DNA of 64,000 nt from Candidatus Omnitrophota bacterium (lineage in GTDB: Bacteria; Omnitrophota; Gorgyraeia; Gygaellales; Profunditerraquicolaceae): assembly GCA_028717245.1 (NCBI GenBank), contig JAQUOD010000001.1, positions 85,514-149,513 of the forward strand, written 5' to 3'. The notes below the pieces were generated by a model. That model saw only the letters and a list, made by a program, of their open reading frames with translations, ran no database searches and was not told the origin of the DNA. The position numbers and the translations under genes were made by a program. Shown here piece after piece: positions 29,226 to 33,362 of this stretch (its first letter is position 1; each line of letters opens with the position of its first letter).

Positions 29226-29753
29226 TTAGTTTTCTTTCTTCTTCTTTATCTGCTCTAAACAATAAACTAATTTTCTTAAATTCCCCTTAAGAACCATTAC
29301 TAAACCAAAGATAGGTGATTTTAAAGCCATTACAGCCTGATATCTCAAAATTTCCTTACAGGGAAGCCGGGCCATCCTTTCGATATCTTTTTTATCCAGG
29401 ATCTTGTCTTCTAAAAATCCTGCTTCTAATTTTAACTGTTCATGCTCACGGAAAAAGCCATATAACACGCGCGAGGTATCTACTGGTTCTTCTTTGGCAA
29501 ATACTAAACCGCAGGGCCCCTCTACGGACTTAATTAAACCTTCTAAACCGGAGTCTTTCAGGGCGCGCCTGGCTACGCTATTTTTGGTCACGAAGAGCTT
29601 GGCCTTTGCGCCTTTTAGCGATTTCCTCAGGGTAGTCAGATCCGGACTGGATAATTTCGAATATCCCACGATAAAAAGGCCCTGCGATTCCTTAAAATAT
29701 TTTTTAAGGCGGTTTTCCAGAGTTTCCCTGAATACTAAACCCAGTTTTTTCAT
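29226..29753 (-). CDS. rplJ: 50S ribosomal protein L10
   Basis: 175 aa. Confidence 0.9.
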   Translation of the reverse strand: MKKLGLVFRETLENRLKKYFKESQGLFIVGYSKLSSPDLTTLRKSLKGAKAKLFVTKNSVARRALKDSGLEGLIKSVEGPCGLVFAKEEPVDTSRVLYGFFREHEQLKLEAGFLEDKILDKKDIERMARLPCKEILRYQAVMALKSPIFGLVMVLKGNLRKLVYCLEQIKKKKEN

Positions 29754-29755
29754 CT

Positions 29756-30436
29756 TTAGAATACCAGCCTTAAGCCCTGGTTCATGGTAGTAGAAACGAA
29801 CATACTGTCTATAAATTTACCCTTGACCGATGCGGGCTTGGCTTCATTAAGCGCCTCTATTACCCGCGAAGCGTTTTCGTAAATTTTATCTTCCGGGAAG
29901 GAAAGTTTGCCTACGGATAAATGTATGCCGCCCTGCTTATCTACGCGGAATTCAACCTTACCCTTCTTTACGTCTTCGATGGCCTTGGCAATATCATTAG
30001 TCACTGTGCCGGTCTTAGGGCTAGGCATCAAGCCGCGCGGCCCCAAAATCTTCCCCAGTTTACTTAAGTCTTTCATCATTTCCGGGGTAGCGATGGCGCA
30101 ATCAAAATCCAGGAATCCTGCGGACACTTTATCTATCAGATCATTAGCCCCTATGTAATCGGCAGCAGCTTCTTTTGCCTGTTTTTCGTGTTCTCCCCTG
30201 CAGAATACAGCCACCCTTACCTTTTTTCCGGTGCCGTGCGGCAGGACTACCGTGCCGCGGATCATCTGGTCTGATTTTTTCGGGTCAACATTAAGATGAA
30301 AGTGCAAATCTACAGAGGGGTCGAATTTAGGGAACGACAACTTCTTTAAAACAGAAATTGCCTCTTTTAATATGTAAGCCTTATTTCTATCTACTTGTTT
30401 TTCAGATTCCCGGTAACGTTTACTGTGCGTTTTCAT
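29756..30436 (-). CDS. rplA: 50S ribosomal protein L1
   Basis: 226 aa. Confidence 0.9.
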   Translation of the reverse strand: MKTHSKRYRESEKQVDRNKAYILKEAISVLKKLSFPKFDPSVDLHFHLNVDPKKSDQMIRGTVVLPHGTGKKVRVAVFCRGEHEKQAKEAAADYIGANDLIDKVSAGFLDFDCAIATPEMMKDLSKLGKILGPRGLMPSPKTGTVTNDIAKAIEDVKKGKVEFRVDKQGGIHLSVGKLSFPEDKIYENASRVIEALNEAKPASVKGKFIDSMFVSTTMNQGLRLVF

Positions 30437-30451
30437 CTCTTTTTTTGGCCT

Positions 30452-30877
30452 TTAACCCTCTATGGCTATACCCATACTCTTAGCCGTGCCTGCTATGATC
30501 TTAATTGCCTCTTCCATATCGGTAGTATTTAAGTCCTTTGCTTTCTGTTTCGCAATTTCTTCAACCTGTTTTTTGGTCACCTTACCGATGATTTCTTTAC
30601 CGCTTATGCCTGATGCCTTGGCGAGGTTGGCTGCGCGTTTCAGGAGCACTGAAGAGGGGGGGCTTTTTATAATAAAACTGAAGGTCCTGTCTTCATACAC
30701 GCTGATCACTGCCGGTAGAATTAAGCCGTCCCTGCCTTTAGTCTGGTCATTGAACTGTTTGCAGAATTGCATAATATTTACTCCGTGCTGGCCTAACGCG
30801 GGCCCGACCGGAGGAGCGGGATTCGCCTGCCCTGCGGGAACGTGTAATTTAATTTGCGCGACTACCTTCTTAGCCAT
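30452..30877 (-). CDS. rplK: 50S ribosomal protein L11
   Basis: 141 aa. Confidence 0.9.
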
Positions 30878-30880
30878 AAC

Positions 30881-31408
30881 TTATACCTTTTCTACCTGCC
30901 AATACTCTAATTCTACGGGCGTTGACCTGCCGAATATGGAAACGTTCACCTTCAATTTACCCCTTTCGGGATGGATTTCTTCAATGGTGCCGTTGAAATT
31001 CAAAAAAGGCCCTTCGTTTACCCTGACCTGTTCGCCTTTTTCAAAAACAATCTTAGGGCTGGGTTTGGCCTGGGTCTCCTGCGTCCTCTTTAAAATATTT
31101 TCAACTTCCGCTTCCGATAAAGGCATAGGTTTTTTTCCTAAGCCGATAAACCCGGTTACTCCCGGCGTAGTCTTAATATGGAAATAAGTGTCTTCATTTA
31201 ATTCCATTTCCACAATAAGATAACCCGGGAAAAATTTTCTTTGCGATATCTTCTTTCTGCCGGAACGAACTTCGGAAATCTGCTCGGTAGGGATAATAAC
31301 TTTGGTGACAAATTCCCCGAGCCCTTGCAAGGCGATTTTATTCTCTAATGCCTGCTTTACTTTACTCTCTAAACCGGTCTGTGTGTGAACAACGTACCAC
31401 TTCTTCAT
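30881..31408 (-). CDS. nusG: transcription termination/antitermination factor NusG
   Basis: 175 aa NGN+KOW. Confidence 0.9.
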   Translation of the reverse strand: MKKWYVVHTQTGLESKVKQALENKIALQGLGEFVTKVIIPTEQISEVRSGRKKISQRKFFPGYLIVEMELNEDTYFHIKTTPGVTGFIGLGKKPMPLSEAEVENILKRTQETQAKPSPKIVFEKGEQVRVNEGPFLNFNGTIEEIHPERGKLKVNVSIFGRSTPVELEYWQVEKV

Positions 31409-31596
31409 CTAAATACCAACCTCAATATGCGGGAAAGTAAGATGTCGATTACGCCTATAAATAAAGCCATAATAAAGGTGGCCGCGATCACCACGGCAGT
31501 AGAACCCATCAATTCCTGGCGGGTCGACCAGGATACCTTGCTTAGCTCTGCTTTGACCTCTTTTAAAAAGGTCGTTATCTTTTTGAATACGTTCAT
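31405..31596 (-). CDS. secE: preprotein translocase subunit SecE
   Basis: 63 aa single TM. Confidence 0.85.
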   Translation of the reverse strand: MNVFKKITTFLKEVKAELSKVSWSTRQELMGSTAVVIAATFIMALFIGVIDILLSRILRLVFR

Positions 31597-31621: not shown

Positions 31622-31692
31622 CAGGAGCGGCAGGAGTCGAACCTGCAGTAACGGTTTTGGAGACCGTTGGTTTGCCATTAACCGACGCTCCT
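31622..31692 (-). tRNA. tRNA-Trp (anticodon CCA), no encoded CCA end
   Basis: Manual fold: acceptor AGGAGCG/CGCTCCT, anticodon loop CTCCAAA, T-arm GCAGG-TTCGACT-CCTGC. Confidence 0.85.
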
Positions 31693-31807
31693 ATTTTTAT
31701 ACCGTTTTCTTTCCCTCGTTTATACGTTTGCAGCCACAAAACGCAGGCGGAACTTGGCCGCTTGAGTATTCAGCTCCGGGAAACCGCGTGCTTTAACCCG
31801 CGGAGCT

Positions 31808-31957
31808 TCATTTTATCTCCTTGTGGAGGGTATGCTTATAACAGAATCTGCAGAACTTTTTTATCTCTAACTTATCCTGATGCAATTTTTTATTCTTAGT
31901 GGTGGTATAATTCCTATTTTTACAAACCGTGCATTCTAATGTAATAATTTCGCGCAT
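31808..31957 (-). CDS. rpmG: 50S ribosomal protein L33 (49 aa, C4 zinc ribbon), not in ORF track
   Basis: Manual translation [49 protein letters not shown]. Confidence 0.85.
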
Positions 31958-31963
31958 CTTTGT

Positions 31964-32035
31964 AGTGTCAAGGTGTCAAAGTATCAGAGTGTCAAAGTAA
32001 AACTTTGATACCTTGATACATGATACTTTGATACA
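31964..32035 (-). repeat. GTGTCAA/TTGATAC inverted octamer arrays (hairpin) between rpmG and tRNA-Thr
   Basis: gtgtcaaggtgtcaaagtatcagagtgtcaaag-taaaac-tttgataccttgatacatgatactttgatac. Confidence 0.85.
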
Positions 32036-32044
32036 GCTTTTACA

Positions 32045-32117
32045 AGCTGGAGACGGGAATCGAACCCGTGACCCCGTCCTTACCAAGGACGTGCTCTACC
32101 GACTGAGCTACTCCAGC
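32045..32117 (-). tRNA. tRNA-Thr (anticodon GGT), no encoded CCA end
   Basis: GCTGGAGTAGCTCAGTCGGTAGAGCACGTCCTTGGTAAGGACG...GGTTCGATTCC...CTCCAGCT. Confidence 0.9.
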
Positions 32118-32549
32118 GGTTTACCATAAGCCACGTCATTAGTAAAAAACCCTTTAGACGATTTTATCGTCGGGCTATAATCCATTGTTATCCTATGGAG
32201 CCCCACGGCTTTACAGCCGTGGTACCTATATTTACCCGCCTACACTTCGCTACGGCGGGTCCGCCTTAGACACGTTTATACGACATCCGCCGTAATGCTA
32301 CCTCCCTGCATTCATCTACGGGTTTACACCCGTGGATTTCTGCACGAAGGCGGATAAAAATAATTTCAGGATAAAAAAACTCACCCCATGAAGAATTTAT
32401 AAAATTCTCCTTAACCTTATATGCCGTATATCTATACAGAGAGATATAGAAAAGCGACTTTAGGTTTGCGTAAAGGAAAAAGTATATATTAAAAATCTAC
32501 CTTTGTCAACCTTTTTTTAATATTTTTTTATAGGCTAGCGGGGTATGGC

Positions 32550-33362
32550 CTATTCCACCTCTAAAACGGAACAGGTTTTAATGTTGGATAGATTGGCGAA
32601 ATCCTGAAGAGTAAGGTCTTCGGGCCGGATATTTCTATTGATCCCGTATTTTTCAAAAAATGCGGTTAGTTTCAAAACAGGGATAATGCCAGAAAGGCTG
32701 TTCCTTAAGGTTTTTCTCCTTTGGTTAAATGCCTTTCTGATAATGGTAAAAAATAACTTTTCATCTTTTAACCTGACAGCGCCTTCCTCCCTGACCTCTA
32801 GCTCTATAAAGCAGGAATCTACTTTGGGGGCGGGGAAAAAACTGTTCTTTTTAATAAAAAATAACGGCCTAGCGGCGCAATAATACTGCACATAGCAGCT
32901 AAAAGAGCCGTAGTCCTTTGAGCCGGCTTTAGCGGTTATCCTTTTAGCGAATTCCTTCTGGACGGTAATAAAGATGGATTCAATCTTATCGCGGTATTTT
33001 AAAAGATGCTCGATAATAGGCGTGGTAATATAATATGGGATATTTCCCACCACTTTTATTCTCCCCTTCACTTTCTTAAAATAATTCTTCAGGTTAAATT
33101 TCAGGATATCCCGGTTAATTATCCTTATATTTGCGTAATCCTTGGTACTATCCTTTAAAACCCTGCTTAAATCTGGATCTATCTCCAGCGCATAGATAAA
33201 GGCGCAATGCTGTCCTAGTAACCTGGTTAAATCGCCGTAACCCGAACCTATTTCTAATACATGGTCGCCTGCCCCTAATTGACAGGATACGGCTATCTTT
33301 CTCTGGATATTTTTATCTACCAGGAAATTCTGGCCTAATCTTTTTTTTGGTTTAAGGTACAT
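32550..33362 (-). CDS. rsmA: 16S rRNA (adenine1518/1519-N6)-dimethyltransferase
   Basis: KKRLGQNFLVD..., SAM motif LEIGSGYG. Confidence 0.9.
   Translation of the reverse strand: MYLKPKKRLGQNFLVDKNIQRKIAVSCQLGAGDHVLEIGSGYGDLTRLLGQHCAFIYALEIDPDLSRVLKDSTKDYANIRIINRDILKFNLKNYFKKVKGRIKVVGNIPYYITTPIIEHLLKYRDKIESIFITVQKEFAKRITAKAGSKDYGSFSCYVQYYCAARPLFFIKKNSFFPAPKVDSCFIELEVREEGAVRLKDEKLFFTIIRKAFNQRRKTLRNSLSGIIPVLKLTAFFEKYGINRNIRPEDLTLQDFANLSNIKTCSVLEVE

Follow-up and report, generated by a model that had tools for sequence, protein, structure and literature searches.

A probable promoter and 5' leader with a lineage-specific structured expansion ahead of the tRNA-Thr-rpmG-tRNA-Trp-secE-nusG operon of an Omnitrophota bacterium

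Bacterial tRNA operons, such as thrU-tyrU-glyT-thrT-tufB of E. coli, are headed by a strong promoter with an A-rich upstream tract and by a leader that is removed by RNase P. Further leader signals have been described in related settings, including the boxB-boxA-boxC antitermination signals in the leaders of rrn-type stable-RNA operons, hairpin-dependent pause or attenuation sites such as the his-type pause and the L4/NusA-dependent attenuator of the S10 leader, the thrS operator of E. coli, being a mimic of the tRNA-Thr anticodon arm, and the tRNA-related T-box leaders. The locus described here is a gap of 432 nucleotides (nt) between rsmA and a tRNA-Thr gene (32549..32118) in a stretch of contig JAQUOD010000001.1 from a Candidatus Omnitrophota bacterium, which was analysed over its whole length of 64,000 nt and is hereafter called the window. 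With a probability of roughly 70%, this gap is read as the promoter and the approximately 355-nt 5' leader of a tRNA-Thr(GGU)-rpmG-tRNA-Trp-secE-nusG-rplK-rplA-rplJ operon, carrying a lineage-specific structured expansion. Its likeness to the leaders of tRNA operons lies in the promoter with an A-rich tract, in the position ahead of the first tRNA, and in the same ancestral neighbourhood in distant Omnitrophota. It is unlike them in length, being many times longer than usual and exceeding that of all of the approximately 90 relatives, and in possessing a closed domain of 180 nt, a conserved hairpin with a U-run, and a box complementary to the tRNA. A promoter with a tRNA-operon leader is an ordinary kind of feature; the conserved leader element and the pairing with the tRNA are the parts most worth following up. 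In the literature, no description of an L33/rpmG leader, no report of NusG autoregulation, and no paper on an Omnitrophota non-coding RNA (ncRNA) was found.

All genes of the region lie on the minus strand in the order pdxA, rsmA (33362..32550), the gap, tRNA-Thr(GGU) as the first gene of the operon (32117..32045, recognised by ARAGORN and by the Rfam tRNA model at 72.5 bits), rpmG, tRNA-Trp(CCA), secE, nusG, rplK, rplA, and rplJ; an earlier, first-pass annotation had placed the gap correctly between rsmA and the tRNA-Thr-rpmG-tRNA-Trp-secE-nusG genes. The related DNA used for comparison comprised 165 Omnitrophota loci (L001-L165, approximately 1 Mb), and the window was aligned with the four closest available leaders, L082, L163, L001, and L162, in an alignment referred to as A3. 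A NusG-based scan with one genome per species returned Candidatus Omnitrophota only, with a top identity of 83%.

The gap opens with a sigma-70-type promoter, TTGACA-17-TATACT (32481..32509, minus strand), matching the consensus at 11 of 12 positions, whose -35 hexamer is adjoined by a 20-nt A/T-rich tract (taaaaaaatattaaaaaaag, 32511..32530) that may act as an UP element; equivalent A-tracts precede TTGACA in the relatives. The hexamer columns are invariant in A3, and TTGACA-N16-18-TATAMT is found upstream of tRNA-Thr(GGU) in most of the approximately 90 Omnitrophota loci. The tRNA begins as little as 13 nt after the -10 hexamer in distant lineages and 100-250 nt after it in the clade of the window; the 363 nt of the window itself is the longest such distance. 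Transcription is predicted to start at approximately 32476-32471, and a start-of-leader box (CCTTTACGCAAA, 32465..32476; YTTACGTAAA in relatives) forms conserved columns of A3. A further leader hairpin, P0 (32421..32458, -10.0 kcal/mol), appears in the minimum-energy folds, and its region can be aligned with L082 and L162. A promoter scan detected no second promoter for tRNA-Thr, and neither a gene nor another promoter interrupts the leader before the first tRNA.

Downstream of P0, the window carries a composite element (32410-32373) made up of a hairpin, HP1 (GGAGAAUUU-UAU-AAAUUCUUC, 32390..32410, minus strand, -5.2 kcal/mol), whose clade consensus is AAGAAUUU/AAAUUCUU, followed at 32373..32389 by a 10-nt G-rich spacer (AUGGGGUGAG) and a run of seven U residues (U7). 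The element was found in 47 loci representing 43 distinct sequences. Across these 43 leaders, the spacer spans 5-13 nt (56% G and 4% C), the T-run extends over 4-9 nt, and a purine invariably follows it. According to pair counts tallied by script, pairs 1-5 of the HP1 stem are invariant, pair 6 is either U-A (28) or A-U (9), and the upper pairs include C-G variants. The stems across loci also contain 12 G-U pairs on the sense strand, favouring an RNA on the operon strand over a DNA palindrome. When a strict HP1 pattern was searched on both strands of 945 kb, 33 of the 39 matches fell within 400 nt upstream of tRNA-Thr; among the other six, at least two (L006 and L100) are apparently the same palindromic hairpin on the opposite strand, and the rest look like chance. 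No further copy of the HP1/U-run motif exists in the 64-kb window. The spacer and U7 stretch can in addition pair with a downstream AUCCU, giving a weak hairpin termed HP2 (-6.3 kcal/mol). A perfect AAGGAG stands 20 nt upstream of a mini open reading frame (ORF), ATG-GGG-TGA, overlapping HP1 and the G-rich spacer (32414-32382, minus strand); it is probably fortuitous, judging by the absence of the ATG in L082 and L001.

The U-run stands 27-104 nt ahead of the tRNA in 42 distinct relatives, compared with 255 nt in the window. In the relatives, an interval this short cannot accommodate a separate promoter for the tRNA, and the tRNA must therefore be transcribed through the element, from which it follows that HP1 with its U-run is not an efficient constitutive terminator. 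Indeed, a canonical intrinsic terminator has a GC-rich stem and a U-tract within 0-2 nt of it, whereas HP1 is AU-rich with a spacer of 5-13 nt, and HP1 does not appear in the list of the terminator scan. Three options had been offered for the gap by the first-pass annotation, namely an ncRNA, a tRNA-operon leader, or a complex terminator/promoter; it is the leader together with the promoter that the conserved sigma-70 promoter and the short spacing between U-run and tRNA in the relatives support.

In B. subtilis, NusG-dependent TTNTTT pauses and terminators consist of a hairpin and a T-tract (PMC8060035, PMC11602163). A pattern of this type, at the level of sequence only, is present in all 43 distinct leaders, and the likeness to pause sites extends to the succession of a hairpin, approximately 10 nt, a T-rich tract, and a purine within an operon leader. 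HP1 and its U-run probably act as a hairpin-stabilised pause or attenuation site, or else as a factor-binding site. Given that the operon encodes NusG and ribosomal proteins, feedback of the kind known from attenuators would be conceivable; nusG autoregulation is not reported in PMC8060035, in which neither "autoregul" nor "secE" occurs. Unlike known pause sites, HP1 is AU-rich with an invariant AAGAA/UUCUU, and this invariance suggests that the stem may be recognised in a sequence-specific manner. The element likewise recalls rrn antitermination signals in its strong promoter, its hairpin, its UUCUU(U)RA, resembling the core of boxA, and its G/U-rich tract. However, UUCUU lies within the HP1 stem rather than in a single strand, and the A-rich tail of boxA is missing. 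Neither the window nor the compared loci contain rRNA genes whose leaders could supply a boxA of the host for comparison.

The position of this element at the head of the operon may be of consequence for its regulation. The genes secE, nusG, rplK, rplA, and rplJ (29226-31596) are tightly packed, with overlaps or gaps of 0-15 nt, no Rfam L1 or L10 leader was detected in the window, and the rplKA and rplJL units apparently lack their usual internal autoregulatory leaders. The tight packing without internal L1 or L10 leaders makes it plausible that the operon is controlled from its 5' end. The leader element shared among Omnitrophota (HP1, the G-rich spacer, and the U-run), so far undescribed, precedes an operon for NusG, SecE, L33, L11, L1, and L10, and since these genes are without their usual internal leaders, it is a candidate master control point.

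A further conserved part lies at the 3' end of the leader. A box of 14 nt (UUACUAAUGACGUG, 32132..32145, minus strand), complementary to tRNA-Thr positions 25-41 (window 32093-32080 plus flanks), is the reverse complement of positions 26-39 of the tRNA except for two changes, and it recurs in L001, L082, and L163/L164. When the leader is folded together with the tRNA, the minimum-energy structure replaces the cloverleaf by a pairing of the box with the anticodon arm that spans 17 positions and includes one mismatch. The match score of the box was reached by none of 200 shuffles. When the last 45 nt before tRNA-Thr(GGU) were examined across L001-L165, complementarity to the leader's own tRNA surpassed that of 95% of shuffles in 17 of 86 distinct leaders and that of 99% in eight of them, these counts not being independent as the sequences are related. 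The part of the tRNA that is targeted varies by lineage and may be the anticodon arm, the D arm (via a CGACGGAG box), or the variable/T arm. This recurrence suggests that leader-tRNA pairing is under selection, perhaps to time the folding of the tRNA or its processing by RNase P, whose cut is expected between 32118 and 32117 from general tRNA biology. As in the thrS operator and the T-box leaders, a leader segment is dictated by the anticodon arm of tRNA-Thr, with the Thr codon ACU standing opposite the anticodon GGU. Unlike these systems, the box of the window is a complement and not a mimic, it faces in cis the tRNA just downstream, no synthetase gene is controlled, and the T-box model gives no match.

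The lineage-specific expansion is a GC-rich domain of 180 nt, hereafter the core (32183..32362, minus strand, -78.2 kcal/mol), in which five arms (Pa, Pb, Pc, Pd, and Pe) are enclosed by a closing stem, P1 (32362-32352 with 32193-32183). Arm Pa (32351-32300, 52 nt, -29.4 kcal/mol) bears at its tip twin hairpin 1 (CCACGGGU-GUAA-ACCCGUAG, 32316..32335), arm Pe (32226-32199, -14.7 kcal/mol) bears twin hairpin 2 (CCACGGCU-GUAA-AGCCGUGG, 32203..32222), and arm Pd is ACCCGCC...GGCGGGU (32234..32260, -13.8 kcal/mol), all on the minus strand. The twins have GNRA tetraloops on stems of 6-8 bp, and they differ by a compensatory change from G-C to C-G beside the loop. The minimum-energy and centroid folds of the core concur on one structure. 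Searching both strands of the window for the 18-nt twin pattern with at most three mismatches gave six matches against 0.32 expected, four of which are the two hairpins read on both strands; these are the only good matches. A tandem duplication as the origin of the core was rejected, as its two halves resemble each other in nothing but the 18-nt hairpin.

Much of this pairing had been noticed in the first-pass annotation, which described the hairpins on the plus strand, whereas the minus strand is the functional one and the loops there are the GUAA tetraloops. Its hairpin ccacggcTTTACAgccgtgg does lie at 32203-32222, and cccgcc-N13-ggcggg (the pairing of arm Pd) is present at 32237-32261. The second copy of the hairpin exists at 32316-32335, the 32313-32333 given there being 2-3 nt off, and the long-range pair tccgcctt (32260-32267)/aaggcgga (32347-32354) is real but encloses 79 nt and not approximately 90. 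The only parts that are kept in the relatives had been overlooked, namely the promoter, the AAGAAUUU hairpin followed by the G-rich spacer and the U-run, and the anti-tRNA box.

The propensity to fold is specific to the minus strand: compared with shuffled sequences, the gap gives z = -6.1 on the minus strand and z = -3.1 on the plus strand, while the predicted transcript gives -5.4 and a 227-nt stretch containing the core -6.0. The GC content of the core is 54-56% as opposed to 28-31% for the conserved 5' leader, with G exceeding C on the minus strand. These figures bear on the proposal that the feature belongs to the plus strand, either as an antisense RNA starting from TTTAGA-17-TATAAT (32153-32181), a promoter-like match at 10 of 12 positions, or as a small protein gene. 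The earlier claim that the gap is free of ORFs is nearly right, as mechanical ORFs of 32 amino acids (minus strand, running into the tRNA) and 36 amino acids (plus strand) do exist, and the proposal can draw on both of them; nothing homologous to either was found in the relatives, where the region itself is absent. Promoter-like sites occur at chance level (six against 4.4 expected), and the weaker fold, the G-U pairs, and the GC skew all favour the minus strand, making a plus-strand feature extremely improbable.

The core has no counterpart in the relatives. In A3, the UP tract, the promoter, the 5' leader, HP1, the spacer, and the U-run match, followed by ACYCUY..UUAU, and the alignment resumes at a 3' box, YTTACTAnAGACGTG, situated 10-14 nt ahead of the tRNA; between these aligned blocks, the window carries approximately 165-195 extra nt. 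L082, L163, and L001 align on both flanks of the core yet are without it. The relatives hold a short hairpin in its slot, and AUCC...GGAU in L001 forms the same closing pairs as P1. Searches by blastn and nhmmer, covering 80 genome loci and 80 metagenome loci, retrieved only the promoter and 5' leader, and no homologue of the core was found in the 165 related loci, the rest of the window, phages, plasmids, or viral contigs. The best non-self identities among 5.8 billion proteins were 78% for RsmA and 93% for NusG; the contigs of these closer relatives all end before or within the leader, and exact-sequence look-ups of NusG and L33 yielded nothing. Of two contigs of near relatives from one metagenome (JGI 3300009538), L162 breaks off within the U-run (1650-1658), whereas L170 has its first base 3 nt ahead of tRNA-Thr. 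L166 starts inside an ORF in this slot, 69 nt before its own tRNA-Thr; assemblies of near relatives thus tend to break in or beside the leader. Judged from these comparisons, the twin-hairpin domain appears to be a species-specific structured expansion of a variable leader hairpin. A free-standing conserved ncRNA gene is unsupported, given that the twin-hairpin part is without a counterpart in approximately 1 Mb of related DNA, phages, and plasmids, and the sole compensatory change lies between the two twins of one sequence. The ncRNA reading of the gap is thus unsupported but retains a small probability.

A further question is whether the core is foreign or mobile DNA of the miniature inverted-repeat transposable element (MITE) or repetitive extragenic palindromic (REP) kind, or else a decayed gene, be it a remnant of tRNA-Tyr/tRNA-Gly or of the ORF that occupies the slot elsewhere. 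Its GC content far above that of the flanks and an imperfect terminal inverted repeat (UUAUUUUUAUCC/GGAUAACAAUGG) would fit such an origin, as would the ORF of approximately 195 amino acids in the slot of L018, L166, and L173-L176. Moreover, distant relatives retain tRNA-Thr(UGU)-Tyr-Gly-Thr(GGU), and the twin loop UGUAAA resembles the anticodon loop CUGUAAA of tRNA-Tyr. Nevertheless, no extra copy as expected of a REP- or MITE-type repeat was seen in the 64-kb window or in approximately 1 Mb of related loci, phages and plasmids gave none, and viral contigs gave one hairpin match at chance level. Alignment scores of the core against tRNA-Thr, Trp, Tyr, and Gly stayed within the range of shuffles, so that a decayed tRNA was rejected, and neither ARAGORN nor the Rfam tRNA model at E <= 10 found a cloverleaf in the gap. 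A decayed slot ORF was likewise rejected, tblastn having matched only the tRNA gene itself. A foreign or decayed origin is accordingly regarded as very unlikely. The viral match mentioned above, the one exact occurrence of the twin pattern among 2.9 million viral contigs (L172 159-178, IMG/VR, CCACGGGTGTAAACCCGTGG), is isolated in an unrelated context and consistent with chance level.

The ORF just mentioned deserves a description in its own right, since it shows what else the slot can hold. In L018, L166, and L173-L176, it replaces the core, lying between the U-run of the leader and a divergent tRNA-Thr(GGU) into which it reads (L018 2876-3565; L166 1-143; L173-L176 1501-2178; a further member of the family at L177 1501-2094). 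It belongs to a family of 321 members in Omnitrophota and Patescibacteria, all without names, and in Daviesbacteria loci it is located approximately 60 nt downstream of tRNA-Thr(UGU). The protein has a confident AlphaFold model (pLDDT 85) and a weak N-terminal helix-turn-helix match, with no sequence match in Pfam or PDB and no fold match in PDB; the model gave weak fold matches only, to viral proteins named endonuclease or LAGLIDADG. A resemblance of its GLYWGEG to LAGLIDADG was not confirmed. By comparison of these sequences, the slot between the U-run and the tRNA appears to be fast-evolving, holding a short hairpin in most lineages, the 180-nt domain in the window, and an inserted ORF in others.

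Between the core and the anti-tRNA box, the window has acquired a terminator-like hairpin, T2 (CCCGACGAU-AAA-AUCGUC-UAAA-GGG then U6; 32144..32174 with the hairpin at 32174-32150, minus strand, -7.6 kcal/mol). It contains the CCGACG box of the clade split by a 10-nt insertion, which creates the hairpin; the relatives have CCGACGCTAAA and no hairpin. U6 follows directly after a weak stem with a 4-nt internal loop, and T2 is absent from the report of the terminator scan. Its presence raises the prospect of a discrete small RNA gene of approximately 330 nt, running from the promoter at 32509-32481 to T2 and U6, with tRNA-Thr transcribed by read-through only. The strong promoter, the U6 directly behind the hairpin, and a compact closed domain with z = -6, a tRNA-like GC content, and GNRA-capped twins are all in keeping with such a gene. 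However, the promoter and 5' leader of the relatives run directly into the tRNA without T2 or the core, the core occurs in one genome only, the stem of T2 contains an internal loop and is weak at -7.6 kcal/mol, and no second tRNA promoter was detected, and a discrete gene is for these reasons deemed unlikely.

T2 could also be one outcome of a riboswitch-like or protein-responsive switch, in which a ligand, a ribosomal protein, or NusG would determine whether transcription terminates at T2 or continues past it. Upstream of T2, two CCGCC and three GGCGG tracts allow mutually exclusive pairings (the 32260/32347 pair, the repeats I7 and I13, and the minimum-energy pairs), a hairpin with a U-run stands at the end, and with secE-rplJ lacking leaders of their own, control may sit at the 5' end. 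Regulatory aptamers are normally conserved, whereas this domain recurs in none of the relatives; the Rfam models of riboswitches and ribosomal-protein leaders gave no match at E <= 10; and the minimum-energy and centroid folds give one structure. A switch of this kind is considered quite unlikely.

Screening against Rfam 15 placed the gap in no known RNA family. No family but the two tRNAs passed its gathering score when the whole window was scanned, and none was added by scans of the gap only at E <= 1 and E <= 10, the classes covered being tmRNA, RNase P, SRP, 6S, T-box, riboswitches, ribosomal-protein leaders, ribozymes, and group I/II introns. Below threshold, RAGATH-32 (18.4 bits) and Sr006 (15.3 bits) appeared on the gap alone at E <= 10. 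The likeness to RAGATH-32 (RF02922) covers 32189-32253, partly matching a single strand followed by a hairpin, which is twin hairpin 2. The candidate was rejected, as its 18.4 bits fall short of the gathering score of 41.8 and its E-value, 0.054 when 363 nt were searched, was already 0.24 for 1.6 kb, so that the match would not survive at genome scale; no mention of RAGATH-32 was found in the literature searched.

Several points weigh against the reading of the gap as a promoter and leader with a structured expansion. The core is very stable (z of approximately -6), has GNRA loops, and has kept its twin pairing through a compensatory change, and it therefore looks selected and not neutral, so that it may have a function of its own; it is known from a single sequence. 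The start site and the read-through are predictions, the pause or attenuation role of HP1 and its U-run is deduced from their architecture, the spacer of 5-13 nt is unlike that of a canonical intrinsic terminator, and T2 with U6 could end a discrete RNA of approximately 330 nt. In keeping with the first of these points, the five-arm domain might itself be a functional RNA, either a small RNA that is stable once RNase P has freed it from the tRNA precursor or a sensor gating the read-through at T2. It would then be a recent product of a single Omnitrophota lineage, set within a conserved but undescribed regulatory leader (HP1, the G-rich spacer, and the U-run with the anti-tRNA box) that controls the tRNA-Thr-rpmG-secE-nusG-rplKAJ operon; this proposal is put forward as a speculative one and thought rather unlikely.

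Under the preferred reading of a promoter and operon leader, a strong sigma-70 promoter (32509-32481), assisted by the UP tract, would direct transcription to start a few nt further on. The nascent RNA would first present the AU-rich hairpin with its approximately 10-nt G-rich spacer, U7, and purine, which may tune read-through into the operon of NusG and ribosomal proteins. The 180-nt five-arm domain, presumed to be an outgrowth of a small ancestral hairpin in this lineage only, would follow, and then the new terminator-like hairpin with U6 and a box of 14-17 nt that could pair with the anticodon arm of the nascent tRNA-Thr. Cleavage by RNase P at 32118/32117 would finally free the leader. 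If confirmed, the stretches complementary to their own tRNA-Thr in many of these leaders would suggest control of precursor folding or processing, and the slot would be a natural example of how a new structured RNA arises.

A few observations on the surroundings of the leader may be added. In L081 (3290-3370) and L163 (885-975), an extra hairpin-rich segment of approximately 90 nt (attgccttcggcaat... and gctccgtaggagc), of which the window is free, lies between the rsmA stop codon and the promoter. Within the clade of the window, tuf is absent between tRNA-Thr and rpmG (31692-32045). The more distant Omnitrophota (L050, L064, L071, L079, and L080) carry tRNA-Thr(UGU)-Tyr-Gly-Thr(GGU), then approximately 1.5 kb, then tRNA-Trp, an order matched by the classical arrangement thrU-tyrU-glyT-thrT-tufB. 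Between tRNA-Thr and rpmG of the window lies a long imperfect palindrome (31964-32035) of 8-nt tandem units, GTGTCAAR four times facing YTTGATAC four times, with G-U pairing on the plus strand and A-C mismatches on the operon strand; a spurious MIR5274 match stems from it. The same spacer holds unrelated long hairpins in the relatives (for example, L082 1700-1790), and the palindrome of the window may be a processing or termination site.

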